The position numbers were made by a program, and so were the translations under genes. Positions 3,362 to 64,000 of a stretch of 64,000 bases of DNA are shown here, in pieces. Numbering within the stretch: position 1 is the first letter of the stretch; each line of letters opens with the position of its first letter. This DNA is from Flectonema sp. DT1601 (Eukaryota): assembly GCA_964019425.1 (NCBI GenBank), contig OZ025804.1, forward strand, positions 682,001 through 746,000. Reading direction: 5' to 3'. Under the pieces are notes generated by a model, which saw only the letters and a list, made by a program, of their open reading frames with translations, was not told where the DNA came from and did no database searches.

Positions 3362-3660
3362 TCTACCTGCATTGCATTGCATTGCTTTTTTTTTTTTTTT
3401 TTTTTTCAAACGATTTACACTCAGCTTTGGTTAGAGTTTCACCCCCCTGTCGTCTTGCATAACAGGCGTCAATGAGACAAAAAAAAAAAAAAAAATAATT
3501 TTCCCTTTTTTATGTTTTCTTTTTTTTTTCTAAACGTAATTTTTCTTTGATTAACAACTACAAATATTTTTTTCAGTCGAGTAGTTTTGATATTAATTTT
3601 GTTTTTAAATACCCTAAAATTATTACTGTTTTTACATTGTCAAAGTTTCCCCTGTCGCGT

Positions 3661-21585: not shown

Positions 21586-21683
21586 CCTACAATTACACCG
21601 TAAACATAATTGCGTATCATTTTAATTTAATTTTTTATTTTATTTTAAATAGACATCTATCGTCCAACAATATAAATAAAAAT

Positions 21684-32935: not shown

Positions 32936-35363
32936 ATGAGATTCACATTATTGATAGTGATTTTATTCGGGTTGTTAACCCTCAGTCGTGGGATCTGTCC
33001 TAACGGGTTTACGGTAGTTGGGAACGACTGTCTTGCTGTATCTACATCACGGCTGTCTTGCTGTATCTACATCACGGCTGTCTTGCTGTATCTACATCAC
33101 GACTGTCTTGCTGTATCTACATCACGGCTGTCTTGCTGTATCTACATCACGGCTGTCTTGCTGTATCTACATCACGGCTGTCTTGCTGTATCTACATCAC
33201 GGCTGTCTTGCTGTATCTACATCACGACTGTCTTGCTGTATCTACATCACGACTGTCTTGCTGTATCTACATCACGGCTGTCTTGCTGTATCTACATCAC
33301 GGCTGTCTTGCTGTATCTACATCACGGCTGTCTTGCTGTATCTACATCACGACTGTCTTGCTGTATCTACATCACGGCTGTCTTGCTGTATCTACATCAC
33401 GACTGTCTTGCTGTATCTACATCACGACTGTCTTGCTGTATCTACATCACGACTGTCTTGCTGTATCTACATCACGGCTGTCTTGCTGTATCTACATCAC
33501 GACTGTCTTGCTGTATCTACATCACGACTGTCTTGCTGTATCTACATCACGACTGTCTTGCTGTATCTACATCACGACTGTCTTGCTGTATCTACATCAC
33601 GACTGTCTTGCTGTATCTACATCACGACTGTCTTGCTGTATCTACATCACGGCTGTCTTGCTGTATCTACATCACGGCTGTCTTGCTGTATCTACATCAC
33701 GGCTGTCTTGCTGTATCTACATCACGGCTGTCTTGCTGTATCTACATCACGACTGTCTTGCTGTATCTACATCACGACTGTCTTGCTGTATCTACATCAC
33801 GGCTGTCTTGCTGTATCTACATCACGACTGTCTTGCTGTATCTACATCACGGCTGTCTTGCTGTATCTACATCACGACTGTCTTGCTGTATCTACATCAC
33901 GACTGTCTTGCTGTATCTACATCACGACTGTCTTGCTGTATCTACATCACGGCTGTCTTGCTGTATCTACATCACGACTGTCTTGCTGTATCTACATCAC
34001 GACTGTCTTGCTGTATCTACATCACGGCTGTCTTGCTGTATCTACATCACGACTGTCTTGCTGTATCTACATCACGACTGTCTTGCTGTATCTACATCAC
34101 GACTGTCTTGCTGTATCTACATCACGGCTGTCTTGCTGTATCTACATCACGACTGTCTTGCTGTATCTACATCACGACTGTCTTGCTGTATCTACATCAC
34201 GGCTGTCTTGCTGTATCTACATCACGGCTGTCTTGCTGTATCTACATCACGACTGTCTTGCTGTATCTACATCACGACTGTCTTGCTGTATCTACATCAC
34301 GGCTGTCTTGCTGTATCTACATCACGGCTGTCTTGCTGTATCTACATCACGGCTGTCTTGCTGTATCTACATCACGGCTGTCTTGCTGTATCTACATCAC
34401 GGCTGTCTTGCTGTATCTACATCACGACTGTCTTGCTGTATCTACATCACGGCTGTCTTGCTGTATCTACATCACGACTGTCTTGCTGTATCTACATCAC
34501 GACTGTCTTGCTGTATCTACATCACGACTGTCTTGCTGTATCTACATCACGGCTGTCTTGCTGTATCTACATCACGGCTGTCTTGCTGTATCTACATCAC
34601 GGCTGTCTTGCTGTATCTACATCACGACTGTCTTGCTGTATCTACATCACGGCTGTCTTGCTGTATCTACATCACGACTGTCTTGCTGTATCTACATCAC
34701 GACTGTCTTGCTGTATCTACATCACGACTGTCTTGCTGTATCTACATCACGGCTGTCTTGCTGTATCTACATCACGGCTGTCTTGCTGTATCTACATCAC
34801 GACTGTCTTGCTGTATCTACATCACGACTGTCTTGCTGTATCTACATCACGGCTGTCTTGCTGTATCTACATCACGGCTGTCTTGCTGTATCTACATCAC
34901 GGCTGTCTTGCTGTATCTACATCACGGCTGTCTTGCTGTATCTACATCACGGCTGTCTTGCTGTATCTACATCACGGCTGTCTTGCTGTATCTACATCAC
35001 GGCTGTCTTGCTGTATCTACATCACGGCTGTCTTGCTGTATCTACATCACGGCTGTCTTGCTGTATCTACATCACGGCTGTCTTGCTGTATCTACATCAC
35101 GGCTGTCTTGCTGTATCTACATCACGGCTGTCTTGCTGTATCTACATCACGACTGTCTTGCTGTATCTACATCACGGCTGTCTTGCTGTATCTACATCAC
35201 GGCTGTCTTGCTGTATCTACATCACGGCTGTCTTGCTGTATCTACATCACGGCTGTCTTGCTGTATCTACATCACGGCTGTCTTGCTGTATCTACACTCA
35301 AGACGTTCTGGAATATGTCGACATAAGATAGTTGCTTGTGATTGTACGACAAACTATCTGTCT
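32936..35363 (+). pseudogene. Truncated copy 3 of the lectin/multi-TM gene with 25-bp array
   Basis: Same junctions; the array exits out of frame (…STLKTFWNMST*). Confidence 0.8.
33028..35296 (+). repeat. 25-bp minisatellite array 3 (90 full units + 19 nt)
   Basis: Perfect phase 33028-35278; mixed G/A variants with a G-rich 3' end. Confidence 0.97.
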
Positions 35364-47800: not shown

Positions 47801-48112
47801 ATTTACGTTTTATATAAGAAGAGAAGAGATCTTCTACAAGAAGAAGAATACAGAGCCATCCATAAGGAGGGTAGTGATCTCTTCTCACCATCGATTAATG
47901 ATGATTCCAATGAAACTCCTCTCTTAACACGTTCTAATACTAAAAATATAAATGATTTGTTGTGTATGAGTTTAACACGTAAAGGTTTTGGGTCTCCAAA
48001 TACTACCAAGTGGACGAGTTCGTCAACCGACAGTATTGTTAACCCTAATCTTAATGTCTTACTTCCTGTTACCTCTGCTTCAAAAGGAGAATTAAATCCG
48101 ATTACTCTGTAG
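44834..48112 (+). CDS. Surface receptor-like protein: signal peptide, ~4 C-type-lectin-like domains, PT-rich stalk, multi-pass (about 7-8 TM) domain
   Basis: 1092 aa from ATG 44834. CTL-like patterns: CPNGF...CL...FIGL...WTW...EP...C and CPSRW...CY...YWLNL...WSW...SWPC...HLCE. PTLIPT repeats are followed by multiple hydrophobic helices. Confidence 0.8.
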   Translation: MRFTLLIVILFGLLTLSRGICPNGFTVVGNDCLTVSTAISTGDDEALCESINADSQLLTIEDEAQLTEANQFMVASNVDFAFIGLSRLNYTRSQWTWGGPTDLNDSVWYKFEPLLGQTCACLCRSGICRHKIVACDCTTNYLSSSAIGLCFGVLMPNGDCYEDTAVDGFPLVVLRKSDLDIYMTRYTGISQLIRIALYRHLYHEFVDGSGVQIDKSLWEEHEPDTNSCVYLGGQDLCASGKICDHACSVEKLALCEHQSPPPCPSRWTEISGVCYRATAGLSGWNPGECTTQYPGSVHVGIKTATEFQALYNSFTGTTTAYWLNLTRFATARATSQWSWFNSTEAYTESQSRDLWDIHHPNSFHSCTIMSATGLKSWPCQSSTQHLCEDSTLSLPNDCVAANGYIYTATSTCFVLEAASIFLKNKQCNFSKNARLAILTDRLMHDTVYAYYGAEAFVGLTQIEVQTGWEWRDPNAFPYNPTTFDIWKDSGTLYPLKNDSCAALGTSCERACSQACNSRRAHICQMKAIPPTAVPTLIPTLVPPTLIPTLIPTESPKNVSTLVPTLIPTNEPSTGVPTTGNQTNVPVVSNNQTNVPITSNQTSAPVINSNQTSAPSADNNTDNGNVVTSRPTITPASIPGVETTEAVAVVAAGAGAVTALVSPSAAVAASQMALILSGCHNETDWQKVPRMMHPLQITIHDNIFVGAVICNIGLVVVVTALHAALTSAFLPVFARFRLIPMKSFLAGQGLLRVPSASLFVFIFLYQGTVFSSMKLALSLKDWFSVVVGIFGWAVCFFVPVAVSRKLSALSPVDDRLCLGIVDNPASKCRYRLDTSTCSKPVITFFIGSGEWVSTDVNCKWDDRYTVVLRPFTERAAWIGAGLPFMLMTFLGLVNTMPTSSYTACGNVKLCSGICYIALTGVQCVLRPYARPRDRFLEPLISAVFSVDLFIMAYGFYMNESDGPTFDVAAILSQVAVAVVMLKAGIDLVTEIYVLYKKRRDLLQEEEYRAIHKEGSDLFSPSINDDSNETPLLTRSNTKNINDLLCMSLTRKGFGSPNTTKWTSSSTDSIVNPNLNVLLPVTSASKGELNPITL

Positions 48113-48534
48113 TACCGATTTTGGTTTTCCAAATCACGCCGTTAGGAAATTTTGATAAAACTTTTTTTTTTTTTTTGCATCTAAGAAGAAACCTATTCAG
48201 ATTAAAAGCCGTTTATTATGTCAAATGTTATCTATTTCCCTGAGTGTCGGTGTTACTTATATAAGGCTTATCTGAACGGGTTTTTTCTTGGTTTGCATTT
48301 TACCAACATGTAAATCTCCTTCAGCCTTTTTTTTTGCATTTAACAAGTATTGTAAGAACGAAAAAGAATGTTGGCAGCACGTAAATCCTTTGGCTTTATC
48401 AGTTTAAGTCGGTTCACGGTTTCGTGCACAAACAAAAAATCACAGTGTTATATCATTATTTTCTGTATAGTTGAAGTTAAAGCCAATTCTTTTTTTTTTT
48501 TTTTTTTTTGTACCAAACTGACCTCTCTTTCTTT

Positions 48535-48825
48535 TCTTGCTGGGTGATATGGCTATGTGCTGCCCAAATCTTTTGTGGTACATTTCTAAAGCTTTTCGGT
48601 AAGCCCACAGTACTTATAATGCTTTGGACAACTGGGGGTGAACGATCCTCGGTACTGTTCCGGGGGTTTCTATTTTCTTTCGTGGAGTGTGGGCATATGT
48701 ATCTGGGCAAGGTGGAGGCTGGAAGTCGATCACTTCCAGCCAATACTATGAAACTACAATCTTCGCGATTCCCAGACCCCTCGTAGTCATCAGTTTGTAT
48801 TTTGCTAACTAAACTAAACTAAACT
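48535..48825 (+). repeat. Dispersed repeat family B copy with (AACTA)n tail
   Basis: Matches 14410-14850 with internal deletions; followed by cttagtcactgtat of family A. Confidence 0.75.
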
Positions 48826-51224
48826 TAGTCACTGTATTGTAACTAATGTTTATTTCTTCATAAATATATTTTTAACATTTCAACCCCTAAATTTTACCAG
48901 GCTATTCTGTGGACACCTAACACCTCACTTCAAGCTCCCACGAAAATACTTTCCTGAAAACCCAAATCTGGTCTATCGCTATGCCGACCAGGGGGAAAGT
49001 TAACCAAGCTTTAGATTTACAGAACAGGCTGACAACAGCCAAAAGTGAATCATATTGTCCTTCTCGGGAACTTCCTCACAACCAGATACGTCACTCTATA
49101 AGAAGTACATGCGGCTCAAGAAGTACGTAGTCGCAACTACACTGCAGATATTATGGCAAGAAGGGATCGACGCAGAGAGATCCGACAAAGTCCTGAGTGA
49201 TTGACGTAGTTGAAGCTGTCGCAGGTGCACAGACAGATGGGGTGCGTGTTGAAGTCAACTATATCTCGAAGGACAGTCCGACTTGTTGAATGATGAATTC
49301 GCAGGTGATGTGTTGGTGGGCTGACTTCTTGAAGCAGCAGCTTCCTCCTCACCCTCCGTCACATCGCTGCAACGTGATACTTCCTCTAGAGCCCGTCTTG
49401 TTTGTGGTCTGAAGTTTACAACTGTTTCACCGTCGTTGTCCCCCCACTTAATAGTTCTCACGGAACGCCACCTCAGCAGTTCTCACGGAATTTGGTATTC
49501 ATGTCTCACTTCCTTTCATTCCAGTTCGGGTGTTGACGCAGATAGCCTAAATGGGGGGGGGTTTTTTTTTTCTGACTCATATAATAATATGATGGTATCC
49601 TGAGTGGCATGTGAGCCCATTTTTTTAATGTTAGCTAACCATAGTAAGTTTTGTGTTTGTGTTAGTTGTAGTTAGTTCTGTAATTTATTCTTTGAATTTG
49701 AGAAAAAAAGAATCATTTCATCTGTTGCAATTGCTTGCAGTGCAATACAATACCCGTAAAAGGATTGTTTTAGTTAGGTGTTTGCATAATCCTAAAGAAG
49801 GGTGTCTTGCTAATTTTTCTTGTCTTTCCATAAGGGAAAAAAAGGGTTTGCAGACTCACGGGACCCTTTTTACTCTTGGTCCTGTTGTTTGCCAAGCTTT
49901 TTTTTTTTTGGCTCAGCAACATACAAATTTGATTCTTGGAGATTCTTGCTTCGAATAAGGATTTGCATCACTTATTTCTAAGTACCACTTTTTTTTTCTT
50001 TTTGTTATGTTACTTTTTATTAATCTCAAAGATTTTGCTTTCTCGGTCCAAGCAAACTGTGTGTGTCCTTTAATAATTGTTGTTTATTGCTTTTGGGGAA
50101 AAAACTGAGAAAGCACTTTGACGATTTTTCCACTGTCCTCCCATTTTAAAAAAATATGAAATAAGTTAAAGGAGGTCAGCGTTATACCTTTGGTCTTATT
50201 GTTATCATTGGCCTAAGAGCTTTTTTTCTTTTTAGATCGAACAATCTAACCCTACAACCTCTTAAGGTGAATGAATGCTATTCCTTTTTTTTTTTTATAG
50301 ACCACCTGTTAGGAACGATTTTGGAAAAATAGTTTTGCAAGAGCAAAATCTTTTTTCTTAATGAAGGTTTTTTCTGAGAGGTGCGACCGCATTGAAGCCA
50401 ATCCACACACCCACTGTGAATGGGATGCTCTGTGTCGGGTCTTGGCTTCTTTTTGTTGTGTTTTGTTATATGTTCTTAAGACGGCGGCGGCGAGTCGTTC
50501 TTCGTGTTCCTCACAACTGATCTTAGATTTACTCATGTCTAACTGAGTTATTTTCATTGTGTTAGCTGGATGATCTCAACTTTTTAATTGCAAAAAAAAA
50601 ACTGTTTTTGTTTTGTTATGTCTTCCTTTTCTATTTTCAGTTAAGCAAAGTTATCTGTTGGCGAAAAGGAAATTATTAAATTCTTCTTCAATGCAAAAAT
50701 CAACATTTTATTTATTTTATAAATAAACAACATTTCCCTTCAAAATGCTTTTGCAAAAAGGAGGGATCTTGACAATGTACTAAGAATAATATCTTTTTGT
50801 TGTTGTTTTCGAAAAGAAGTTCAACATCGCAGTAAAATCTCGCTTGTGGACCTTACTAAACAAAGAAAAGGAGAATATTTTTATTTTAAGCTCTTGCACT
50901 TTGTTAGTGATGTGTGGAAATGTAATTGACAGCTCTTGTTGAAGTGATAAATTCGTCACAAGAAGCTCCTGGTTGCAAATGATAGAGCGAGACTTGTGCA
51001 TTTGTACGTCTTTGCCTCATCTGTGCTGACCTGTTTTGGCGTGTGCAATTTTTTGTTTTCTTTGTTTAACCTTGCAGGTCGGTCTCCGACCCAAGTTAGT
51101 GCTGTGTTTTTCAGCGACTCAACAATTTGTTATTTGTAAAAAATCTTTCTTCGATTCTTCAAAGTTCCAATAAAAAATGGCGAAAGGACAGAAGTAGTAA
51201 GTAATATTCACAGAATTGTTTGGG

Positions 51225-51229
51225 AAAAA
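51225..51229 (-). terminator. Pol III T5 terminator of tRNA-Ser
   Basis: TTTTT on the minus strand 2 nt after the discriminator base. Confidence 0.7.
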
Positions 51230-51231
51230 TC

Positions 51232-51313
51232 CGCAGCCGGCAGGGTTTGAACCTGCGCATGCAAAGCACACTCGCTTAGCAGGCGAGCCCCGTAACCACT
51301 TGGGTACGGCTGC
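51232..51313 (-). tRNA. tRNA-Ser(GCT)
   Basis: The minus strand folds as acceptor GCAGCCG/CGGCTGC+G, D arm CCC-AAGTGGTTAC-GGG, anticodon arm CTCGC-CTGCTAA-GCGAG, a long variable arm, and T arm GCAGG-TTCAAAC-CCTGC. Confidence 0.93.
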
Positions 51314-51388
51314 CTCTGGAATGAAAAAAAATCTTTTTTTTTTTTTTGAAAAAAACTCTTATTTCTTCTTGAAGAATACCTATTGGGG

Positions 51389-51459
51389 GCGTCATAGTGC
51401 AGTGGATGGGGTGGTGCCCCCACACCCAATCGGCCTCGGTTCGAACCCCGCTGTACGCA
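51389..51459 (+). promoter_or_regulatory. tRNA-like element with Pol III A box (51395-51405) and B box (51438-51448)
   Basis: TAGTGCAGTGG and GGTTCGAACCC sit at tRNA spacing with a remnant acceptor stem GCGT-CA/TGTACGC. The D, anticodon and T stems do not pair properly, so this is not a functional tRNA. Confidence 0.7.
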
Positions 51460-51608
51460 CCGCGCCTCACAGCGCAATCAGTTTCCGTGTCGCATCCCCC
51501 ATTGTCTCGAAAAAGTGAACGGCCACCCAGTAAGGGCAGCGCCTAAGCAATTATAGTAGTAACAAAAAGAAGGAGAAACACAGTAGTGAAACACTCAAAA
51601 AAAATATA

Positions 51609-52566
51609 TTTGGCGAAGGGACAGCTCCGGTGAGCTATGCGGAGGCTGGGCCTGGAGCACTCACGGTGTCGCACTCGAGGAGTGGACATAAGGTGTTTGG
51701 CGAAGGGACAGCTCCGGGGAGCTACGCGGAGGCTGGGCCTGGAGCACTCACAGTGTCGTACTCGGGGAGTGGACACGACGTGTTTGGCGAAGGGACAGCT
51801 CCAGTGAGCTACGCGGAGGCTGGGCCTGGAGCATTCACGGTGTCGTACTCGGGGAGTGGACACAAGGTGTTTGGCGAAGGGACAGCTCCGGGGAGCTGTG
51901 CGGAGGCTGGGCCTGGAGCACTCACGGTGTTGTACTCGGGGGGTAGACACAAGGTGTTTGGCGAAGGGACAGCTCCGGTGAGCTATGCGGAGGCTGGGCC
52001 CGGAGCATTCACGGTGTTGTACTCGGGGGGTAGACACAAGGTGTTTGGCGAAGGGACAGCTCCGGGGAGCTGTGCGGAGGCTGGGCCTGGAGCACTCACG
52101 GTGTTGTACTCGGGGGGTAGACACGACGTGTTTGGCGAAGGGACAGCTCCGGTGAGCTATGCGGAGGCTGGGCCCGGAGCATTCACGGTGTTGTACTCGG
52201 GGAGTAGACACAAGGTGTTTGGCGAAGGGACAGCTCCGGGGAGCTGTGCGGAGGCTGGGCCTGGAGCACTCACGGTGTCGTACTCGGGGAGTGGACACAA
52301 CGTGTTTGGCGAAGGGACAGCTCCGGGGAGCTACGCGGAGGCTGGGCCTGGAGCACTCACAGTGTCGTACTCGGGGAGTGGACACAACGTGATTGGCGAA
52401 GGGGCGGCTCCGGTGGGCTGTGCGGAGGCTGGGCCTGGAGCACTCGCGTTGGTGCCGTACTCGAGGAGTAGACACAATGTGTTTGGCGAAGGGGCAGCCC
52501 CGAGGAGGTATGCGGAGACGGGGCCTAGAGAACCCACGCTCGTGTCGTACACGAGGAGGGGGCACA
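51609..52566 (+). repeat. 87-bp tandem repeat (11 units) at the element 5' end
   Basis: tttggcgaagggacagctcc recurs at 51609, 51696, 51783 ... 52482; the last units are diverged. Confidence 0.95.
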
Positions 52567-52631
52567 GCCAGTCGAAGACAAACCGCACACTAGGGGCAGG
52601 GAGTGAGACGGCATCAACGCGGGGGCCTGGG

Positions 52632-55600
52632 ATGAACACGACAATGGCACACGAACAGGAGTATACAAAGAGGTGGCGGGCCATGTTGGAATTAGAGATA
52701 CTCAGGGATATGCCGGGTCTAGGGACACATATGGCAACAGGAATATTACCGTCTTTAGCATGTCAAAAACTGGAGCCCACGATATGGTTATTCCCTCAGC
52801 CAAAGCTAGTGGGTTGTGCGGGAACGAATGAGACCGAGAGGTATCAGGAAGAAATCACGCAACAGGTGAGGGGGCCAAACCGGGCGAGCGACAGGTGGAG
52901 ACTGAGTCCACCAGCGCGATGGCACAAGAAACAAGAGAAGAAGCGGGAAAAGGCCCGGAAAACGAAAAGTGGGGGACGAACAAAGGAAGAGAGAGCGCCG
53001 GAAGATGAACAGTCGACGTCAAAGCCGAGAAGCAGTTGCAAGCAGCAGCCCCACGAGATGAGAGGTGGGGGTGCGAGCTGCCCAGTGTGTGAGTGGTCTG
53101 GGACGGAGAATGGCCTGCTGGCACACATAGATGGGAAGCATAAAGGTCAATTGGGACAGGACCAGTGGGCTGACTGCGGCATGAAGGCGTGCGGACACTG
53201 CGGACGAGCAATGAAGGGGACGGCCAGTATGCACCCAAGGTGTAGGAAGTTGAGCAGCTCCAGAGAGGTGGAGGGGGAAGCAACGCCAAGCACGTCCATA
53301 GAACTACAGAGGGAGTTCCCGAGAGTCAGTGTAACCAAGACTAAGGGGGATGGGGACTGTATGTTCCGAGCAATCCTACTGGCGAAGGGAGAATGGAATC
53401 GGCGAGTGGGTGCGAGGGTGCTGCGGAAGAGACTCGCGGAATACATGAGAGGTGAAGAGAGGACGGACCAATGGTTCGTCAACGGACTGGCCAAGGAGGA
53501 CTACGCTGTACGACTGGAGAACAAGGGATGGGGGGACAACGTAGCGCTGCAGGTTGCGGCGGACCAGATGGGAGTAGTGATCATAGTGTGGGAGGCGGGG
53601 AGACTCCTAAAGATGCTGCCCCTGAGAAGGACTGAGGACATCCCGCTGTGGATAGTGCTGGATAAAGAACACTACGAGGCAGTGCTCCAAGCGGACGCCG
53701 AAATGCTCAATCGGGTGGAGGAGAGAGCCGAGGCGGTGTATGTGCTGAAGCTCTCCGAACAAACGGCTGAAGAGGCTGCGGTGAGGATAGGCCTGGGGAC
53801 GGGACCAAGCGCGGGACTGAGGGGGTCTGGGCCTTACTACTGCCCCAGGGGAGAATGCTCGCGATCACGCGCCCAGCGATTTGAGGGATATAAGAACTGG
53901 GGAGGACTATTAGGCCACTTGAACAAGGAGCACCTCCTGTCAGATCGCCCTCTCACGGAGGCGGAGCAGCAGGCGATGGGGGTGCGACCATGCACGATGT
54001 GTGGGTGTCTGACGGGAAGCAGCACCGGGGTCCACCCGAGATGTAGAGAAGCCATGGCGCTAGATGGGGGGGAGGAAGAGGTTCAGAACGCCCCGTGGCC
54101 AGACGAAAAAGAGCTTGGAGAGCTGCCGTCGTGGGAGGAGATAGGGGCGGCACAGGTAGTGGTGCCAAAAAAGTTGGACGAGAGGCTGACGATGTTGTGG
54201 GCGAGAGCTCTCATGGCAACATTGCAACGGATAGCACAGCGGAATGACCCGCGGGCATGGAAGCTGCTATTGATGCTCCCGAAAGCATGCCTGGGAACGC
54301 CGGCGGTGCGGAAGGATGAGAAGGGGACAGAGACGCATAGGGAGAGGCTGACGAGCAGGCTGGAAGGATGGCTGAGGGGAGAGTATGTAGCGATGTGGAG
54401 CACGAGGGCAAAGAGGAACAAAAGACGACGGGAGAAGGAAACGACACAGGGAGAACGGTATGAGCGGTGCTGCGCCCTGAGCAGGAGAGGGAGGTACGCG
54501 CAGGCTAATAAATGCCTGGTGTCGAGCGGGCTAGCGCCGAACGCGCCGGAAGTCCTGGCGGCGATGCAGACCATCCACCCGAGTCCCATGCACGAGAAGA
54601 TAGACCTGGAGGGGGTGAGAACGGGGAACACAGTAGTGTCGCCGGAGGAAGCACTAGCATCGCTGAAGACATTCCCGAAGGACACGGGGGCCGGACCGTC
54701 GGGATTAAGCGTGGAGCTCCTGAAGCAAGCGTGCGACACGGGACTGCGAGGGTTGATGCCAACGCTCTGCACTACATTAGAGCTACTGGTAAGAGGGAAA
54801 GTACCTTATGAGGCGGCACCGGTGTTGGCAGGAGCTCGCCTGATCGCGCTGAAGAAAGAGCCGACCGGGTATAGACCAATAGCAGTAGGGGAATCACTGC
54901 GGAGGTGGGCGTGGAAGATAGTGCTAGCAAAAATAAGGCCCAAGATACCAAACCTCTTAAAGCCAGGAGGACAGCTGGGGGTGGCGGTACCCAGTGGGGT
55001 GGAGGCGGTGTACGCAATAGTACGGGACTACGCGAAGAGGAACAGGGGGGCCAACAAGGCAATCCTGACCATTGATTTTGAGAACGCTTTTAACTGTGTC
55101 TCGAGGGCGGTGTTCCTGCGTGAGCTGGCGTCCACGCTGCCGGAACTGTTGCCTTTGGCATCGTGGTGTTACGAGAGACCGACGAGCCTCTTTTTTGAGG
55201 ATACCACGATTCCGTCGAGGGAGGGGGCCCAACAGGGGGATCCGGCGGGGCCTCTCCTTTTCTCACTCGGGATAAAAAGCCTACTGGAGGGACTCAAGAA
55301 GATGGGACTGGATGGAAGCCTCTGGTTCTTAGACGATGGAGTGTTGATGGGAGGCGTAGACGAACTAGCGAAGGCGTACGACTACCTGGTACAAAAGGCA
55401 TCAAGCCTGGGGCTAAAGGTAAAGGAGGCGAAGTGCGTATTCGTACCTCTGCGGGTGGGCCTGGAACCGAAGGGGGGCTTGGAGAAGGTGAAACAAGAGT
55501 CCGAGGGAAACTTCACCATTCTCAAGCTACCGGTAGGGAGTGGGAGCTACTGCAAGGAATACCTGCTGCAGTACGTGACGAAGCTGAAGAAAGTAAGCGA

Positions 55601-58600
55601 GTCACTGACGATGCTACCGGATCGGCACGTAGCGCTGACCCAGCTACGATACTGCCATTCGTATGGGAAGATGGTATACTTGATGAGGTCAATGTACCTG
55701 GAGGACCAGCGATCAGGTCTGGCAGATTTCGATGCGGTGGTGAGAAGCGTGTTGCGGGGTCTCGTGGGTGGGGATATGGATGAGCGGGCGCACTTACAGG
55801 CGGAGCTACCTTTGCGGGAAGGGGGGGTGGGCCTGCGAAACTGTGGGAGACACGCGGCGGCGGGCAGAGCAGCGTCGGCCACTGCGACGAGGAAACTGTG
55901 CGTGGAGCTGGACGCCCAATACCAAGTCGACCCTGAGGAGTGGAGTGGGGTGTGTAAAGCGCTGACGCTGGAGACCTCGGAGGAGTGCGACCTGGACCTC
56001 GATAAGGTAGTGCGACAGAGAGAGCTGTCAATGAAGATCGACGCCTCGCTGAAAACGAAGATGGTCAACGACCTGAAGGGGAGCGGAGACCGAGAAAGAC
56101 TTGCACACTTCAGAGCGGTGTCCATGCCGAGGGCGAGTGCGTGGTTGGCGGAGGCAAGCGACACGGGAACCGTGATGCCGTCGCAAATTTTCCGGACCGC
56201 GATCAGGGCGCATTTAGGGCTGGAGGTCTTACAGGCGGGACAGCTATGCAAGAGGTGCAACGCTAAGCTAGACCCTCGGGGGGTGCACGCAGGGATGTGT
56301 AACCGGGGGGCAACGCCAACCATACGCCATAACCTAGTCAGGGATTTCCTGGCGAAGCAGGCAAGGGTGACGGGGATGTCCGTGGAAATGGAGCCGCAAC
56401 GAATCCTAGATGGAGGGAGGAAACCGGCCGACATCCTGGTAAGCGAGGCAGTGCCGGGAACGACACGAAACTGGACAGGAAGACCGGCGGCGTACGACGT
56501 GACGGTCATCGAGGTATGCTCGCAGACAAGTCTGTCCCGGGGATCGCACTTGGATGCGAGGCGGGTCATCCAGGCGAAGGAGAGGGAAAAGGTGAAGAAA
56601 TACGGGGAGGAGTGTAGCTCGAAGGGAATAGCTTTCGTTCCTCTAGTCTTCACGCGCGACGGGGCCATGAATGAGGCAGCTGCGGCCTTCATCAAGGCGA
56701 TTTCTCTGAGGACACGGAGACCGGCAGAGGCGTGGAGGGCACTGTCGAAAGAGATATCAACAACGCTAGCGTATAGCTGGGCGAGAGCGGTCGAAGATAG
56801 GGGGGAGTTGCTGATGGGGGGCGACGGAGCACCTATCAGTACGGATCTACCCCCGATATTCAAGGAGGATGAGTGGGAAGACGAGATACAAGACCTGGTC
56901 GACAAGATGGGGAGCATCGGGGAGGGGCCAGACGAATCGGGGCGGTTACTGTCGGAGGCCGACCGGAGTGTGGGAAGGACTACCAGACCGGACGCTGCGC
57001 CGGAGATTGGCCAAGCTGCAAGAGATAGCACACAGAAGGCAGGCAACCAGAGGGAGGTGCAAGCCCCGGAAAGCGGGACGAGGTCCACCCTGCAGGAGCC
57101 GAAGGAACTGGAGCAGACTCACGGAGGGGCAGGGGAGCCGGGGGAGGCACGAACGGAGGAACCGTCAACTGAGGAATCTGGAGTCGGAGGGAGGACGCCG
57201 GCGGAGGGACCAACTCCGGACCGAGGGAACGCAATCACGGAGCCTTCACGAGCTGAGGAACCGGGACCCACGACGAAAGAGACAGGACGGTTGCCGGGCG
57301 CCCCGGTGGTGAAGCTGGTAGTTTCGGAAGGCAAGCCAGGAAGTGTTCCAAGGTTCAAAGGACATGGCAGAGATGTGATGGCCCAGCTAGAGCGAGATAT
57401 GGCGGACCTAGACATCACGAAGCGGCCGTTATTGTCCTACGAGGCGTCGGGAAAACAAGATGACAAGTGGGCCACATCGGATGTGAGGGGATTTGAGAAC
57501 ACGAGAGGGACGTGCTACGCCGCAGCAACAGTTTGCAGCCTAATATGGGCCACACCACTAATAGGGTTGATGAGAGAGAAAGAAACGGCGGATAAAACGT
57601 GCGTAGGGGGATGTCTCGCCTGTGTACTGTGGAAGATGTCTAAAGAAGACCACCCAAGACTGGACGGGTTAATGGAGGAGACACGAGTCACGATCCAGGA
57701 CTTCACGGCGGACACGGTCAGGAAGGAGATAACAAGGTATTCTTTGGCAGGAGGTTCGCCATTGGCTTTCCTTAAACAGATCCTAAATAACCTGGCACTG
57801 AGGGAGTGCGCGGTGTGGGGGGGGACTCTGAGGAGCCTGTTCGAATCCAGATTGAAAGCGACACACAGGTGTGTATGTGGGTTTGTGAGGCAGGAGGTGC
57901 AGCTGAGTTTCATGGTCTTGGACCCAAAGACCAAGCCGGAGACAGCAAAGATCATCCTCTTAGGAGGGCCGCTCGAAGAAGAGACGAAGAGTCCAACGAT
58001 CTGCGAGAGGTGTAGATCGCCAAACAGAGACTGCACTGTGCAGTGGAGATTCGCCGAGATGCCGCCGATCCTGTTCGCGAAGGAGAGAGTGGAACAGACG
58101 ACGAGGGCCGCCTTTCAGGTAGAGACTGAAAGCGGGCCACGCAGTTATGTTTTAACGGGGAGTGTATGTGGCAATGGGAGACATGCAATGACAATGGTAA
58201 GAACGCCGAGGAACCGATGGGCATGTGTGAGCGACGAACGGGTGCGGAGCAAAGAAGGACCAGGCACGGGGCCGCTTTATTGGGTGTATACGAGAATCGA
58301 AGGAACGGAGGGTCTGTTAAGTGAGAAGCTCCTCTCCATAGACCACCGCATGCGGACAAGCCGAGCACTGAAGCCACGCCCAATGGACGATAAATCGGGA
58401 CGAGCGAGGCGGTGGTACTTTGACCAAAAAACACAAGTAGCGAAGGAGGCGGTGGTAGAAAGGAGGGAAGAGCCAGTTCTGCATGTGGAAAAGCCGAGGG
58501 CAGAGCAACCACCATCCCCGTCGGAGCCGAAACCTTTGGAGCCAGCATCAAACGGAGACATTGCGAAACTGACGCAAGAGACGAAGGAAGAGCCACCAGT

Positions 58601-61600
58601 ACAAACTAACCGCTCCAAAGGGGACGGTGGGCAGCAGGCGCTGCCGCCGCCCCAGCTGCTCAAGTCTGAGGCGCGGAGTCCAGAGCGGGCAGAAGGCTCA
58701 ACAACGGAACCAATGCGAATGGACGGGAGCGACCAGACTAAAGACGTCACCGAACCGTCGGCGGGGATAGGATTGCACGCAGGAGGGAATTACTCGGACA
58801 CATCCCTGTCGCTATCGGAACCGCCGCCTGTGAAACCCCACGGAAATGTCGAGACTTTGGAGCCAGCATCAAACGGAGACATTGCGAAGCTGACGCAGGA
58901 GACGAAGGAAGCGCCACCAGTACAAACTAACCGCTCCGAAGGGGACGGTGGGCAACAGGCGCCGCCGCCGCCCCAGCTGCTCAAGTCTGAGGCGCGGAGT
59001 CCAGAGCGGGCAGAAGGCTCAACAACGGAACCAATGCGAATGGACGGGAGCGACCAGACGAAAGACGTCACCGAACCGTCGGCGGGGATAGGATCGCACG
59101 CAGGAGGGAATTACTCGGACACATCCCTGTCGCTATCGGAACCGCCGCCTGTGAAACCCCACGAAAATGTCGAGCGGATGCCACAGGGACTGAGTGCGGT
59201 GCCATTGACGCTGTCAAAGCAACCGGAGGACCAGGATAGACGACAGACACCGCCGGCTCCCCAGCAGTCCGTATTAAAACTACAAGAAACAGGACAGGAT
59301 TTGCTACAGGTCCCGGTGAAAGTAGCCGAGCGGTCGAAAGAACCGGAGGCGCCGCCTGCGGTAAAAGAAGAGTCGAACCTGCCGGCGAGGAACCTTTCAC
59401 CACCGGTGTCTATTTCAACACCAAGCCAGGACGTGCGGACGCCTACGCAGCCGTTGCGTGATCCCGAGCAGGGAGAACCGCATGCACTTGTGAAACCGAC
59501 AGAGGGCGCACAGACGCAAGCGAATGGATTGGTTTCAGAAGGAGCAGCCCCACAGAAGAGCAGAAGGGAGCCGACAGAACCTAAGACGTCTAGGGAGCAA
59601 GGTCTAAAACTGGGCTTTTACGCAACAGGACCGACCACGTGGGAGACAGCACCGTGGGAAGGAGAGCAAGACCCAGAGGAGGCCCAACAAAAGAGGGAGC
59701 CACTGGTACCACAGGAAGCAAACGCTCGGGAGGAAGACCGCGAGGGATATGACGAACCGACAGCGCGTGGAACAGACGGAGAAGCTGATGTACAGATGGA
59801 GAACTATGAGAGCCAGGAAGGGGCGAACTCCCAGGAACTAATGGAGGAAGTTACAGGGGAGATTGCCGAAACGAGCGAGCCGCTAGCGTATGGAATGGAT
59901 GAAGGGGGTGATATACTCATGGAGGACTGTGAACCGGAATCAAACCTTTTCTGCACGCGGGTAGCGCCAGCGGCCCCGTGTCTTGGTAGCAGAGGCCCGG
60001 ACGTCACCGAACCGCAGAGCCAAGGGGGTGGGACGAATATCCAGACGCGGACCACCTGGATGGAGGGCCTGACGAACCTCGGAGACTCGTGTTACCTGAA
60101 CGCCACCTTGCAGGCACTACTGAAGGGGTCGCATGTGGATTTCCAGCGGGCACGGAACACCCCTCACGTATGCGGGACGAGGTGCACAGTGTGCGCACTA
60201 GCACTGGTGCAGGGAGGTGGGTCGCAAGGAGAGATAACGAGGATCACAAGAGAATGGATGGGAAGAGGACAACAGGACGCCCACGGAGCCCTACTACACA
60301 TAGTGTCGGACCTGCAGGAAAGAGCAAGACCAGGCGACCTCTTAGCAAACGCTTTCACATGCATGGTGGCAGTAGAACGCACGTGCATATGCTGTGGCGG
60401 AGGGAGCCAATCAATCGAGCTGGACTGCGGCCTGATACTGCGGGGATGGGACCTACAGTCGGCACTGGAGTCGACGACGATACCACAGGACTACGTGTGC
60501 GGACTGTGCGGTACGGGGTCTTTGCAGGAGCGCAGGATCTTGATGGAGGCGCCGGAAACGATGATCGTATGCATTGTGAACGAGAATGCCACGAAAATGG
60601 CGCTGGGAGAACAAGTGTCGATGCGGAACAGCAAGATACAGGCCGACTATAGGGTGTCCGCTGTGGTGGTCCATCAGGGGTGTCTGGGATCGGGTCACTA
60701 CACGTCTTTCACCCTATCACCGGGCGGCTGGAGGTACCAGGACGATGAGGTGGAGCGAGCAACAAGCTGGCGAGAGGTGCTGTCGTCTGTCCCTTACGTG
60801 CTATTCCTGCGAAGACAAGCTACAAAGGAGATGTTCTGCGCAAATGAAGTTCCGATGATGCCACGACTAGCTCCACAGGTGGTCAGGGTAACGCCCCCAG
60901 AGCAGCACGGAATGGAAGGAAGGGATTATAGGCAAGTGAACAGTGAAATGCTCATACGGCCTGGAACGCAAAAGTCACGGACACAGTGTGAAGTACCACA
61001 ATCAACACGGACCCAAAACCCACCGAACCTGCTAAGGACGGTGAAGACACTAGGTCGGTGCGAGAAGAAGAACGCCACGCGTGTCACAATACGAGCACAC
61101 ACAACGAAAGGCCAGAGGAGTCAACCGGCGACGCGAATGGAGAGCAAGTTCAAGCTCTATGCTATCTCGAAGGGAAGGGGACGCACTACCATCGTGAATA
61201 GCTGGGCAGAGGCCGAGAAACAGACGAAGGGACTCTCTTGCGCTGTTTATCAGGGCTTCAATAATGGAGAGGAGGCGGAGGCTTTCCTGAGAAGCACTGA
61301 CCCGGAGTATAAGACAGCAGACAAGCCAGTAAAAGGCCCACGCAGAAATCGGCGGTACGCGGTCCCGTGTGGACGGCGTCCAGGAACGTACAGCACATGG
61401 AGTGAAGCCTCACTGCAAGTGCTACGCTGTCCAGGTGGGAAGGTGAAGAAGCTTTGCACGGACAGGAGAGCACGGGAGTACGTCGAAGAGCACAGAGCCA
61501 CGAAAGGGTTAACGCAGCCAACACCACCACATCCAGCTGTGTACCTTTTCTTAGGCAAAACCGGAAGGGCGTGCCTGGTGCGGAGTGGCGGAGGACCAGT

Positions 61601-62870
61601 GATGAAGAAGTGGCATGAGACCACAGGAGAGGAAAAAGACCCCATGCTGGCCGCACTAGAATTGGCACTGGAATGGGTCACAGGGAAGGGCCTCCTGGAG
61701 GGACCCGTGGAAGTGCAAGCGTACGCACCCTTGGAACAGTGGACGAGAGAACGGTGGGAGAAATTCGGGGCGATAAGTAGCGTGGTAAGGGCACGAGGAC
61801 TAGTGTTGAGGCTGGCGGACCTACCTGTCGAAGTAAAGCACACAGCTTACCAGTGGGTGTGCCAAGTGATGACAGGCGAAACAGAGGTAGAACAGAAACC
61901 GAAGCCAGCGGAACCAGTCGAGGAGCCGAAGGAAGGATCGGCAGATCCCCACCATGGACGTGAGCCCCGAATAGGATGGCGCCCAAGTGCGATCCATGAG
62001 CCTGAGGAGGGAGTGCGAGGACAGTCGGAACCGGAAGCGGCTTTTAGAGATTCGAAGAAGAGGGCGAAGATCGAGCTCATAGAATGGCACTCTGAAAAGC
62101 CCATCTATGAACTGTTCTACGCAGCAACACAGAGGGAGACGAGAACGTGTGTTGTAAGTGGCGGTGAAGTGATCCACATGTGGAGATTCCCCCTCAAGGA
62201 ATGCTCGCCGAACCGCGAGGGTAAGGCGTTAGGGATCGGGATGGCGCAGCTGCTAAGTTACGGAGACGCAGTGAAGGAAATAGTGGCGTACGGCTCACTC
62301 GAGCACTCAGTAGAGTCACACCGACGATACATCGAGGTCTCGCAGAGAATGGCGCATCGACTTGGATCAACGCTGAGGCTGGAGCGCCTGCCCCCCGAAG
62401 CCAGCGAAGAGGCCTACCGATGGGTGAGAGGTGAGGAAAAAGTCGGGAGGAGATTGTTAAAGTGGAAGGAGGAGAACGGTAAGGAAGTCTCACAGGCGGT
62501 AACAAGCACACACGAGAAAAATATTGTGCCTGAAACCACCACGGAGCCTACCATGGACCATGACTCAGACAAGATGACGTCAGACTCGAGCTCGATCTGC
62601 TCCCCACCGACACAAGAAGACCGCCCCCCAGTAGGGATGTGTGGGTGCGGAAAGGAGATACCGCAAGCAGCGATCAAGAATCCGGTGAAACACCCGACGA
62701 AGGGATGGTGTGATAGGTGTGGAGAGCGGATCGCGAAGGGAACGCGGGTAGTCATGTGCGTGAAGTGTGACTACGCTGAATGCTGCGGATTGTTGGAGAG
62801 ATCGCGGCGTGGGAAAGAGAAGAGGAAAAGGAAATCACGGGGATCGCGATCGAAAAACGATGCCATGTGA
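52632..62870 (+). CDS. Retrotransposon polyprotein: ZnF-OTU-ZnF-RT-RLE-USP-linker-USP-2x RNase H1 hybrid-binding domain-2x RNase-H-like-ZZ-like finger
   Basis: First in-frame ATG at 52632 (frame open further upstream). OTU: GDGDCMFRA...HYEAV. RT: GPSG, RPIAVGE, DFENAFN, QQGDPAGPLLF, FLDDG. RLE: CKRC..H..C, RHN, KPADI, KVKKY. USP: GFENTRGTCY..RHAM..SDERV and GLTNLGDSCYLNA..QQDA..GSGHY..QDDEV. Confidence 0.88.
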   Translation: MNTTMAHEQEYTKRWRAMLELEILRDMPGLGTHMATGILPSLACQKLEPTIWLFPQPKLVGCAGTNETERYQEEITQQVRGPNRASDRWRLSPPARWHKKQEKKREKARKTKSGGRTKEERAPEDEQSTSKPRSSCKQQPHEMRGGGASCPVCEWSGTENGLLAHIDGKHKGQLGQDQWADCGMKACGHCGRAMKGTASMHPRCRKLSSSREVEGEATPSTSIELQREFPRVSVTKTKGDGDCMFRAILLAKGEWNRRVGARVLRKRLAEYMRGEERTDQWFVNGLAKEDYAVRLENKGWGDNVALQVAADQMGVVIIVWEAGRLLKMLPLRRTEDIPLWIVLDKEHYEAVLQADAEMLNRVEERAEAVYVLKLSEQTAEEAAVRIGLGTGPSAGLRGSGPYYCPRGECSRSRAQRFEGYKNWGGLLGHLNKEHLLSDRPLTEAEQQAMGVRPCTMCGCLTGSSTGVHPRCREAMALDGGEEEVQNAPWPDEKELGELPSWEEIGAAQVVVPKKLDERLTMLWARALMATLQRIAQRNDPRAWKLLLMLPKACLGTPAVRKDEKGTETHRERLTSRLEGWLRGEYVAMWSTRAKRNKRRREKETTQGERYERCCALSRRGRYAQANKCLVSSGLAPNAPEVLAAMQTIHPSPMHEKIDLEGVRTGNTVVSPEEALASLKTFPKDTGAGPSGLSVELLKQACDTGLRGLMPTLCTTLELLVRGKVPYEAAPVLAGARLIALKKEPTGYRPIAVGESLRRWAWKIVLAKIRPKIPNLLKPGGQLGVAVPSGVEAVYAIVRDYAKRNRGANKAILTIDFENAFNCVSRAVFLRELASTLPELLPLASWCYERPTSLFFEDTTIPSREGAQQGDPAGPLLFSLGIKSLLEGLKKMGLDGSLWFLDDGVLMGGVDELAKAYDYLVQKASSLGLKVKEAKCVFVPLRVGLEPKGGLEKVKQESEGNFTILKLPVGSGSYCKEYLLQYVTKLKKVSESLTMLPDRHVALTQLRYCHSYGKMVYLMRSMYLEDQRSGLADFDAVVRSVLRGLVGGDMDERAHLQAELPLREGGVGLRNCGRHAAAGRAASATATRKLCVELDAQYQVDPEEWSGVCKALTLETSEECDLDLDKVVRQRELSMKIDASLKTKMVNDLKGSGDRERLAHFRAVSMPRASAWLAEASDTGTVMPSQIFRTAIRAHLGLEVLQAGQLCKRCNAKLDPRGVHAGMCNRGATPTIRHNLVRDFLAKQARVTGMSVEMEPQRILDGGRKPADILVSEAVPGTTRNWTGRPAAYDVTVIEVCSQTSLSRGSHLDARRVIQAKEREKVKKYGEECSSKGIAFVPLVFTRDGAMNEAAAAFIKAISLRTRRPAEAWRALSKEISTTLAYSWARAVEDRGELLMGGDGAPISTDLPPIFKEDEWEDEIQDLVDKMGSIGEGPDESGRLLSEADRSVGRTTRPDAAPEIGQAARDSTQKAGNQREVQAPESGTRSTLQEPKELEQTHGGAGEPGEARTEEPSTEESGVGGRTPAEGPTPDRGNAITEPSRAEEPGPTTKETGRLPGAPVVKLVVSEGKPGSVPRFKGHGRDVMAQLERDMADLDITKRPLLSYEASGKQDDKWATSDVRGFENTRGTCYAAATVCSLIWATPLIGLMREKETADKTCVGGCLACVLWKMSKEDHPRLDGLMEETRVTIQDFTADTVRKEITRYSLAGGSPLAFLKQILNNLALRECAVWGGTLRSLFESRLKATHRCVCGFVRQEVQLSFMVLDPKTKPETAKIILLGGPLEEETKSPTICERCRSPNRDCTVQWRFAEMPPILFAKERVEQTTRAAFQVETESGPRSYVLTGSVCGNGRHAMTMVRTPRNRWACVSDERVRSKEGPGTGPLYWVYTRIEGTEGLLSEKLLSIDHRMRTSRALKPRPMDDKSGRARRWYFDQKTQVAKEAVVERREEPVLHVEKPRAEQPPSPSEPKPLEPASNGDIAKLTQETKEEPPVQTNRSKGDGGQQALPPPQLLKSEARSPERAEGSTTEPMRMDGSDQTKDVTEPSAGIGLHAGGNYSDTSLSLSEPPPVKPHGNVETLEPASNGDIAKLTQETKEAPPVQTNRSEGDGGQQAPPPPQLLKSEARSPERAEGSTTEPMRMDGSDQTKDVTEPSAGIGSHAGGNYSDTSLSLSEPPPVKPHENVERMPQGLSAVPLTLSKQPEDQDRRQTPPAPQQSVLKLQETGQDLLQVPVKVAERSKEPEAPPAVKEESNLPARNLSPPVSISTPSQDVRTPTQPLRDPEQGEPHALVKPTEGAQTQANGLVSEGAAPQKSRREPTEPKTSREQGLKLGFYATGPTTWETAPWEGEQDPEEAQQKREPLVPQEANAREEDREGYDEPTARGTDGEADVQMENYESQEGANSQELMEEVTGEIAETSEPLAYGMDEGGDILMEDCEPESNLFCTRVAPAAPCLGSRGPDVTEPQSQGGGTNIQTRTTWMEGLTNLGDSCYLNATLQALLKGSHVDFQRARNTPHVCGTRCTVCALALVQGGGSQGEITRITREWMGRGQQDAHGALLHIVSDLQERARPGDLLANAFTCMVAVERTCICCGGGSQSIELDCGLILRGWDLQSALESTTIPQDYVCGLCGTGSLQERRILMEAPETMIVCIVNENATKMALGEQVSMRNSKIQADYRVSAVVVHQGCLGSGHYTSFTLSPGGWRYQDDEVERATSWREVLSSVPYVLFLRRQATKEMFCANEVPMMPRLAPQVVRVTPPEQHGMEGRDYRQVNSEMLIRPGTQKSRTQCEVPQSTRTQNPPNLLRTVKTLGRCEKKNATRVTIRAHTTKGQRSQPATRMESKFKLYAISKGRGRTTIVNSWAEAEKQTKGLSCAVYQGFNNGEEAEAFLRSTDPEYKTADKPVKGPRRNRRYAVPCGRRPGTYSTWSEASLQVLRCPGGKVKKLCTDRRAREYVEEHRATKGLTQPTPPHPAVYLFLGKTGRACLVRSGGGPVMKKWHETTGEEKDPMLAALELALEWVTGKGLLEGPVEVQAYAPLEQWTRERWEKFGAISSVVRARGLVLRLADLPVEVKHTAYQWVCQVMTGETEVEQKPKPAEPVEEPKEGSADPHHGREPRIGWRPSAIHEPEEGVRGQSEPEAAFRDSKKRAKIELIEWHSEKPIYELFYAATQRETRTCVVSGGEVIHMWRFPLKECSPNREGKALGIGMAQLLSYGDAVKEIVAYGSLEHSVESHRRYIEVSQRMAHRLGSTLRLERLPPEASEEAYRWVRGEEKVGRRLLKWKEENGKEVSQAVTSTHEKNIVPETTTEPTMDHDSDKMTSDSSSICSPPTQEDRPPVGMCGCGKEIPQAAIKNPVKHPTKGWCDRCGERIAKGTRVVMCVKCDYAECCGLLERSRRGKEKRKRKSRGSRSKNDAM
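58534..59174 (+). repeat. In-frame 321-bp (107-aa) direct duplication in the inter-USP linker
   Basis: ctttggagccagcatcaaacgg at 58534 and 58855; the copies are nearly identical. Confidence 0.95.
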
Positions 62871-63278
62871 GAAGCATGAAACGGAAAGTGAATGAACGGA
62901 AAAAATTAAATGTAAAGAAGTGAACTTGTAAAAAATGTAAAGAAGCAAACATGTTAAAAGAAAAATGAAAAAAAAAAAAAAAAAGAAGAGTGAAAAGGAA
63001 GACAGAGTTGTATGTAAACTGTATGTAAATGTAAGAAGAAAGAAAAAACACGCTGGAAGTGGGAGTGCAACCATCAGCGCAAACACAACCACAAATATTG
63101 TTTTTTTTTCCTTTTTCTTTTCTTCGCTTCGGCGACAGATATGGTAGGACCTAGAAAACCGGCCCAAAACTTGTGTTGCAGTTTATCTTTTTAGCGCACA
63201 CTCATGTAACATAAGGATCGCTGGTTCCGAGGGTTTGCTCTCCTGCCATACTTGCCTCTCACCTCCCTCAAAAAAAAA

Positions 63279-64000
63279 ATAAAACGTGCGTAGGGGGATG
63301 TCTCGCCTGTGTACTGTGGAAGATGTCTAAAGAAGACCACCCAAGACTGGACGGGTTAATGGAGGAGACACGAGTCACGATCCAGGACTTCACGGCGGAC
63401 ACGGTCAGGAAGGAGATAACAAGGTATTCTTTGGCAGGAGGTTCGCCATTGGCTTTCCTTAAACAGATCCTAAATAACCTGGCACTGAAGGAATGCGCGG
63501 TGTGGGGGGGGACTCTGAGGAGCCTGTTCGAATCCAGATTGAAAGCGACACACAGGTGTGTATGTGGGTTTGTGAGGCAGGAGGTGCAGCTGAGTTTCAT
63601 GGTCTTGGACCCAAAGACCAAGCCGGAGACAGCAAAGATCATCCTCTTAGGAGGGCCGCTCGAAGAAGAGACGAAGAGTCCAACGATCTGCGAGAGGTGT
63701 AGATCGCCAAACAGAGACTGCACTGTGCAGTGGAGATTCGCCGAGATGCCGCCGATCCTGTTCGCGAAGGAGAGAGTGGAACAGACGACGAGGGCCGCCT
63801 TTCAGGTAGAGACTGAAAGCGGGCCACGCAGTTATGTTTTAACGGGGAGTGTATGTGGCAATGGGAGACATGCAATGACAATGGTAAGAACGCCGAGGAA
63901 CCGATGGGCATGTGTGAGCGACGAACGGGTGCGGAGCAAAGAAGGACCAGGCACGGGGCCGCTTTATTGGGTGTATACGAGAATCGAAGGAACGGAGGGT
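63279..64000 (+). mobile_element. Second, 5'-truncated copy of the same retrotransposon, head-to-tail, running off the window
   Basis: Matches 57592-58313 with two differences seen (63489, 63493); begins directly at the A10 tail of copy 1. Confidence 0.93.

Follow-up and report, generated by a model that had tools for sequence, protein, structure and literature searches.

Why should the protein of a retrotransposon continue for some 2,000 residues beyond its endonuclease, and carry deubiquitinase-type domains on both sides of its replication core? The question is raised by a locus of Flectonema sp. DT1601 (NCBI GenBank assembly GCA_964019425.1, contig OZ025804.1, positions 682,001 to 746,000 of the forward strand), a stretch of 64,000 nucleotides referred to here as the window. 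Towards its end lies a retrotransposon lacking long terminal repeats (non-LTR type), with a single open reading frame (ORF), in which a reverse transcriptase (RT) is followed by a restriction-like endonuclease (RLE) with the motif order of CRE-like elements, as the first-pass annotation of the window had described. An OTU cysteine-protease domain precedes the RT, and one probable and one canonical USP (peptidase C19) domain follow the RLE. Single captured ubiquitin- or SUMO-type proteases are already known in transposons; what is new here is an apparently undescribed clade of giant CRE-like elements bearing deubiquitinase-type domains, to which the window element belongs.

A single long frame in a multi-copy element

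The window contains no N, and the frame has its one stop at 62870 (Table 1). The first in-frame ATG, at 52632, would give a protein of 3,412 residues and had been taken as the start; however, the frame is open from 51534 through the 87-bp array, and since full-length members of the family continue upstream with more repeats and 465 further residues, the ATG is internal and the window copy is truncated within the array. The residues named in the first pass all lie in frame at the bases given for them (Cys 53358, His 53670, FLDD 55326, Cys 56247 and Cys 57513 and, in the tail, His 58182, Cys 60090, QQDA 60270 and His 60696), and the tail, put at about 2,000 residues, amounts to about 2,018 after the RLE in this copy. 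Five segments of the tail have stops in every other frame on both strands and none in the frame of the element, which excludes a chance open frame. The GC content at third codon positions of these segments (0.58–0.68) resembles that of the RT–RLE core (0.69) rather than that of four host genes (0.30–0.38), so the tail is not fresh host cargo; overall, GC is 57–60% in the element versus 32–49% in the host part of the window.

The element is mobile, multi-copy and young. Its 90% protein cluster has 26 members, of which 15 are listed, all derived from ENA (one or more assemblies) and placed on at least 12 different contigs. The C-terminus is common to 11 of the 15 members listed, as a nested 5'-truncated series, and the RLE is joined to the whole tail in four of them, on four different contigs. 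Because the members listed end at the same C-terminus in 11 of 15 cases, the tail is not chimeric, which settles the concern that other copies might lack it. Two full-length members (4,614 and 4,730 residues) carry 24 or 28 repeat units, versus 11 in the window copy, together with 465 residues of their own, and show 6 and 7 differences from the window copy in 3,412 residues. Within the window, a second copy matches 57592–58313 with 99.7% identity over 722 nt (2 differences). The 300-nt stretch between the two copies was considered as 3' untranslated region (UTR) and ruled out for 63100–63267, which is similar to a host repeat at 7609–8048.

In the full-length copies (P0007 and P0009), the N-terminal 465 residues are predicted from gene calls alone. 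This part gave no PDB match and no matching relative, its best Pfam hit being DUF1373 at E 0.09, and is vWA-like by impression only. It opens with a hydrophobic, signal-peptide-like stretch, which may be a gene-calling artefact; a similar start is found in the relatives P0202 and P0174, and a predicted signal peptide has been reported for some FoTeR proteins (PMC12857005; here and below, statements on published work refer to the accessible parts of the sources).

Table 1. Features of the element, in window positions.
Feature	Position	Strand	Details
Single open frame	51534..62870	+	3,778 codons, stop to stop; element portion from ~51609
5' junction of copy 1	51594..51608	+	CTC + A8 + TATA abutting first repeat unit; 5'-truncation point
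87-bp tandem array	51609..52538	+	10.7 copies, in frame; 29-aa unit
First zinc-finger pair	53079..53243	+	CxxC...H...H and CxxC...H..C; from sequence; like fingers in relatives; no Pfam match
OTU cysteine-protease domain	53322..53699	+	Cys 53358 (GDGDC), His 53670 (HYE)
Second zinc-finger pair	53844..54044	+	Upstream of RT; matches D. papillatum relatives at E ~1e-7
Reverse transcriptase core	54852..55445	+	QQGDP and FLDD motifs
CCHC knuckle and RLE	56247..56813	+	RHN, E, KPAD, KVKKY
Linker, low-complexity	56814..57473	+	P/E/G-rich
Divergent USP-like domain, probable	57474..58301	+	Asn, Cys 57513, His 58182; Ser-Asp follows the Trp; no QQD box
Linker, low-complexity	58302..60053	+	Contains 321-bp duplication, 58534–59174, 97%
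Canonical USP/peptidase C19 domain	60054..60821	+	Cys 60090, QQDA, GHY His 60696, DD
RNase H1 N-terminal hybrid-binding domain 1	61152..61286	+	Pfam Cauli_VI; PDB 1qhk E 5e-5
RNase H1 N-terminal hybrid-binding domain 2	61353..61490	+	Second Cauli_VI stretch; PDB 3bsu E 3e-4
Duplicated alpha/beta domain, copy 1	61524..61874	+	Unassigned; 28% identical to copy 2, E 4e-6
Duplicated alpha/beta domain, copy 2	62088..62441	+	Unassigned; related to copy 1
C-terminal Cys-rich finger	62640..62792	+	From sequence; Pfam E at least 0.44; basic tail after it
3' UTR, A-rich	62871..62984	+	A17 at 62968–62984, likely 3' end; position approximate
Second copy	63279..64000	+	5'-truncated inside first USP; CTC + A10 before it; extends past window edge

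The RT matches Pfam RVT_1 at E 4e-13 (49.9 bits, cut-off 29.6), and in the RT profile search R2 structures score above L1. In the RLE, the series CCHC + RH(D/N)...E...(R/K)P(A)D...D/E is complete and in order, with relaxed spacing: 9 and 8 versus the published 7–8 and 9–10, and a last Asp 21 residues off versus 12–14. N-terminal zinc fingers, internal repeats and a poly(A) end, all traits of CRE-type elements, are present, and the nearest named relatives are annotated SLACS. The CRE-like placement, drawn from such motifs and annotations, is probable; the trees considered below hold database relatives and no named CRE reference. Matches to Glyco_hydro_11 arise from the 29-aa repeat and were discarded.

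The OTU call is borne out by a Pfam match above the cut-off (E 8.5e-8; 33.2 bits versus 23.3), with catalytic Cys and His kept, by PDB OTU matches at E 6e-5 and by alignment with the OTUs of the clade; its best solved relatives in a PDB profile search belong to viral polymerases of 4,000 residues to which an OTU is fused. The second USP is canonical, as had been proposed: Pfam UCH is matched at E 5e-15 (56.1 bits, cut-off 23.9), the Cys, QQD and His boxes and the DD are all present, and it finds 77 PDB sequences at E≤0.01, USPs in all 60 shown. Viral contigs searched with the RT and with the second USP gave no match.

In the case of the first USP, the domain is probably what it had been called. 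The catalytic Cys and His and the order of motifs are kept, the Ser-Asp pair is also found in the active USP16/30/45 (PMC10867860), the weak PDB matches (3/3) are USPs, and the ESM Atlas gives 0.96 to UCH clusters with 188 of 256 features, a value reached by about 1 in 100 shuffled proteins. Less favourably, Pfam UCH_1 stays below threshold (E 7.5e-4; 19.7 bits, cut-off 22.2), and a single-sequence AlphaFold model, at pLDDT 33.6, is uninformative on the fold. The top three ESM Atlas clusters are giant-virus USPs, which is no evidence of transfer. A recent duplication of the second USP was rejected as its origin, as a two-USP profile does not separate it from shuffles, and a search for relatives using this domain gave no match.

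The rest of the tail holds two RNase H1 hybrid-binding domains that the first pass had missed (Cauli_VI, 66.1 bits versus a cut-off of 21). The duplicated alpha/beta domain behind them is possibly a catalytically dead RNase H fold, a lead seen in ESM only (0.85), the conserved acidic residues not being evident by eye. RNase H found no support in Pfam or the PDB, where a profile search gave weak kinase matches only; PHROGs gave none, and the RNase H of a relative did not match. Foldseek (no match at E≤0.001) and VIA-align (best Z 4.9) are uninformative here, and the single-sequence AlphaFold model is of low confidence (pLDDT 43.1). The C-terminal finger resembles, by motif and not by profile, a ZZ-type finger; Cys clusters of a similar kind lie behind the post-RLE OTU of P0174, P0185, P0058 and P0017.

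Relatives and known systems

A search of 1.84 billion representatives returned 13,533 matches at E≤0.001, of which the best 150 were examined. Among them, 129 have an RLE match, with a median tail beyond it of 13 residues (11 exceed 200 and 3 exceed 700). In the best 80 of 323 metagenome loci an RLE match is found in 44, of which 42 have a stop, always within 29 residues of the RLE (42/42), and OTU or USP occurs in none. That the RLE normally ends the protein is thus supported, in agreement with the norm described for RLE elements (PMC13708176), and the window element departs from it; many of the relative records come from short contigs, on which a long tail would tend to be missed. Pfam finds OTU in 2, Ulp1 in 2 and UCH in 0 of the best 150, with neither OTU nor USP outside the clade described below, and profiles built from the domains of the clade find OTU in 7 and USP in 1, most of these positives being seeds or their cluster mates (the exceptions are P0017, P0039 and, for its first OTU, P0058).

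A cluster look-up, which covered 10 relatives, revealed two families of Diplonema papillatum with a USP behind the RLE. The protein KAJ9439003.1 (P0202; 3,379 residues) has OTU, RT and UCH in the same order as the window element, with UCH above the cut-off at E 1e-7, and is annotated in GenBank merely as 'SLACS 132 kDa protein'. Both it and KAJ9435656.1 share the arrangement OTU–zinc finger–RT–RLE–long linker–USP, with Cys and His kept, at core identities to the window element of 35% and 31%, respectively. They have one USP, and hybrid-binding domains were not detected in them by Pfam, whereas the window element has a further, probable USP and two hybrid-binding domains. The last ~200 residues of KAJ9439003.1 (~3180–3379) form an extra domain without assignment, found on 44 contigs as a truncated copy. 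The accessible text of the D. papillatum genome paper (PMC10161547) and seven supplements searched mention SLACS-like ORFs without domain content. Thus, the earlier impression that the architecture matches no known family stands in that no published description was found, but OTU–RT–RLE–USP was already in GenBank. Word-index searches for long relatives returned the query's own cluster only; these blanks carry little weight, since the 3,379-aa Diplonema protein, a non-representative member, was missed.

Two further families are of the type OTU–RT–RLE–OTU, and in three fragments the RLE is followed by one or two OTUs. A FastTree phylogeny of 148 rows (P0105, P0114, P0131 and P0163 were left out as too short) groups the window element with P0016–P0020, P0039, P0058, P0202 and P0077 at a support of 0.979. 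In an IQ-TREE analysis of 43 chosen rows, a group of nine receives 100/100, comprising the window element, the two Diplonema families with a USP, five families with an OTU and, from a 2.5-kb contig, the fragment P0077, whose tail is not covered. A deubiquitinase-type domain stands behind the RLE in 8/9 rows of this clade, at core identities of 31–42%, and the Cys and His motifs are kept in 8 aligned OTU domains and in 3/3 aligned USP domains. The tree is midpoint-rooted and does not resolve how the group branches at its base, so that it does not give the order and number of captures. Other CRE-like relatives (P0031, P0032, P0150, P0112, P0067 and members of A4 and A5) carry add-ons of their own, namely MLLE behind the RLE, Ulp1, N-terminal RNase H, Prim-Pol, RFX and PHD.

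Among described elements, the trypanosomatid SLACS, CZAR and CRE1/2 and the fungal MoTeR, FoTeR and Cnl1 are like the window element in their single ORF with zinc fingers, RT and RLE, in poly(A) and in internal tandem repeats (PMC12278014, PMC12857005). Their proteins end at the RLE (~1,150–1,200 residues in FoTeR; PMC12857005), whereas the window element continues for 2,000 residues, and a spliced-leader or telomere target was not seen at the window element; the accessible part of PMC12278014 makes no mention of a protease. NeSL and Utopia-1_TSP (Ulp1) and Dualen/RandI (Josephin-related or C48, with RNase H) are RLE-type non-LTR elements with a captured ubiquitin- or SUMO-type cysteine protease (PMC4640811, PMC9977147). 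They differ in having one protease, of other families (Ulp1, Josephin), which is N-terminal in NeSL and Utopia, and Dualen combines an apurinic/apyrimidinic-type endonuclease (APE) with the RLE, while a Pfam scan of the 4,730-aa member of our family detected no APE family. In size the window element is no record, since the ORF of Dualen-1_GCr has 5,287 residues (PMC5029228); that of Burro has 4,873. Ginger1, Helentron and a Trichomonas vaginalis transposase are fused to OTU, Ulp1 or peptidase C19 (PMC2836005, PMC6431247); these are, however, DNA transposons, and Ginger1 has OTU or Ulp1, never both (PMC2836005). Published cases are thus single captures of Ulp1, Josephin, C48, OTU or C19, and in the literature covered, with Repbase and most subscription journals outside its scope, no description was found of a USP in a non-LTR element or of proteases flanking an RT–RLE core. 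Deubiquitinase and polymerase also share one chain in the turnip yellow mosaic virus (TYMV) protein that bears PRO/DUB and in nairovirus L; these are RNA viruses with an unrelated replication core, and the comparison is functional only.

Junctions and genomic surroundings

Both 5' junctions lie 0–4 nt past CTC followed by 8–10 A, and the window contains only two such strings (51594–51604 and 63267–63277). Positions equally near an A-run make up 0.4% of the host part and 0.8% of intergenic DNA, figures to be read with the pattern having been picked after it was seen and with n=2. The pattern fits a preference for A-tracts or template jumps onto polyadenylated RNA. A host repeat homologous to the junction flank (8040–8076) has a T-run at its end instead of the A-run. 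As for a target-site duplication, no string is shared by the flanks besides A- and T-runs and CTC-A8, the 3' end of copy 2 lying beyond the window. Rfam on 48000–64000 gave tRNA-Ser only and no spliced-leader gene, and a 12-nt leader motif gave 2 two-mismatch matches versus 7 expected, with the proviso that the host's own leader may differ.

About 150 nt upstream of the element, a tRNA-Ser(GCT) gene (51232–51313, - strand) and a degenerate tRNA-like sequence (51388–51460, + strand) are arranged head to head. The latter has A- and B-box-like strings and, by eye, a Gly-like loop; ARAGORN and Rfam found no match and its folding z is -0.4, and it could be a pseudogene, the head of a short interspersed element (SINE) or a Pol III promoter element. 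Further upstream (1–48112), all 16 ATG-started ORFs of at least 200 residues are on the + strand and none on the -, and the long ORFs (a sulfotransferase array, a calpain-like gene and a C-type lectin) appear to have single exons. By inference only, this region resembles the unidirectional gene clusters of euglenozoan-type genomes. Arrays of a 25-bp unit at 16094–21518, 27026–28973 and 33024–35296 (217, 78 and 91 copies) have no stop in any of the three + frames, and each is directly followed downstream by a 526-codon frame, the one at 21564–23144 being a sulfotransferase; further arrays in the window have 51-, 82- and 84-bp units.

Possible roles of the OTU and USP domains

RLE elements move by target-primed reverse transcription: their zinc fingers attach to the target, which is then nicked by the RLE, and at this nick the RT starts its copy of the polyadenylated RNA. 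The core of the present element would work in the same way, with early stops giving 5'-truncated copies; the truncations and the poly(A) of the window copies agree with this. The OTU and USP domains, presumably active deubiquitinases, would have the element's own machinery as substrate, stripping ubiquitin from its protein or ribonucleoprotein and thereby putting off degradation until integration has taken place, a reading we put close to an even call. The RNA:DNA intermediate would be bound by the two hybrid-binding domains, which might also protect it from host RNase H. By analogy, the OTU-like PRO/DUB of TYMV deubiquitinates the virus's own 66K polymerase (PMC5695851), and human L1 ORF2p is restricted through TRIM41 ubiquitination and degradation (PMC10716122). 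Selection on activity is suggested by the class of enzyme behind the RLE, which differs between branches while the position is kept, rather than one passenger sequence being carried along, and also by the catalytic residues being kept across families only 31–42% identical in the core.

Several points weigh against this reading. The activity, substrate and expression of the domains are presumed, self-cleavage and action on host chromatin would suit this domain layout just as well, and the cases cited as precedent were observed in a plant virus and in human cells rather than in this host. Since 142/150 relatives have neither OTU nor USP, these domains are not required for retrotransposition generally. 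Degenerate copies occur in some clade members (P0017 and the first OTU of P0058), and the first USP of the window element may itself be inactive, as it has no QQD box and its kinship to the second USP or to the Diplonema USP is undetectable (84 of 1,000 shuffles scored equally).

Other explanations have to be considered. The domains might act on host substrates, removing ubiquitin or ubiquitin-like proteins from histones, repair or silencing factors at the insertion site and so aiding integration or transcription, as has been proposed for the OTU, Ulp1 and C19 of DNA transposases (PMC2836005). The tethering of the protease domains by long flexible linkers to DNA- and hybrid-binding modules, the basic C-terminal tail and the presence of several enzyme types per chain, which would suit several substrates, speak for it, but Pfam detected no chromatin-reader domain in the full-length protein, and we regard it as unlikely, though worth keeping in view. 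It is also rather unlikely that at least one of the proteases cuts the 4,700-aa polyprotein and releases the RT–RLE core from the N-terminal region and the tail, in the manner of viral papain-like proteases. The large size, the low-complexity linkers on both sides of the core, the possible signal peptide of full-length copies, which would need removal, and the dual activity of TYMV PRO/DUB (PMC5695851) would suit such processing. Against it, the linkers contain no 2A motif and no evident repeated ubiquitin-like cleavage motif, and three enzymes exceed what self-cleavage needs. Moreover, cellular-type USPs are generally known to require a ubiquitin fold for binding.

The tail could instead be captured cargo, acquired by read-through or template switching and riding along without helping the element. 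A degenerate first USP, possibly dead RNase H-like domains and the many unrelated add-ons of relatives (MLLE, PHD, RFX, Prim-Pol) would agree with this, yet ~2,000 codons have stayed open and in frame in several copies, the codon composition of the tail is like that of the core and catalytic residues are kept across distant families, which makes a mere passenger improbable. That we are dealing with a chimeric assembly or a domesticated host gene, and not with a mobile element, is hardly credible and largely refuted: although the junctions are known from the assembly alone and the other copies from their proteins alone, the joined RLE and tail on separate contigs, the nested truncations with a common 3' end, the second copy, the poly(A), the distinct GC and a similar architecture in the unrelated NCBI assembly of D. 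papillatum all argue against it.

Returning to escape from ubiquitin-dependent degradation, a wider version of it can be proposed, possible in our view although rather doubtful as a whole. In the undescribed giant CRE-like clade, at least in Diplonema, the space behind the RLE may be an interchangeable anti-host slot, where active OTU and USP domains would be swapped and stacked in an arms race with ubiquitin-based restriction; in the present family, hybrid-binding domains of the RNase H1 type and dead RNase H folds would have been added, shielding the RNA:DNA intermediate. If this is true, retrotransposons would encode counter-defence enzymes of a kind known from viruses.

The purpose of ubiquitin and SUMO proteases in transposons has been a standing question since NeSL, Dualen, Ginger and the Helentrons were described. 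The clade provides a natural series for it (OTU+OTU, OTU+USP, OTU+USP+USP), and the question becomes directly testable because there are intact young copies and one branch resides in D. papillatum, which is free-living and in culture. The clade also shows that a protein can extend past its RLE, and surveys selecting for a C-terminal RT–RLE would therefore tend to miss such elements. All together, the clade adds a set of compact, divergent predicted deubiquitinases to those carried by mobile elements.

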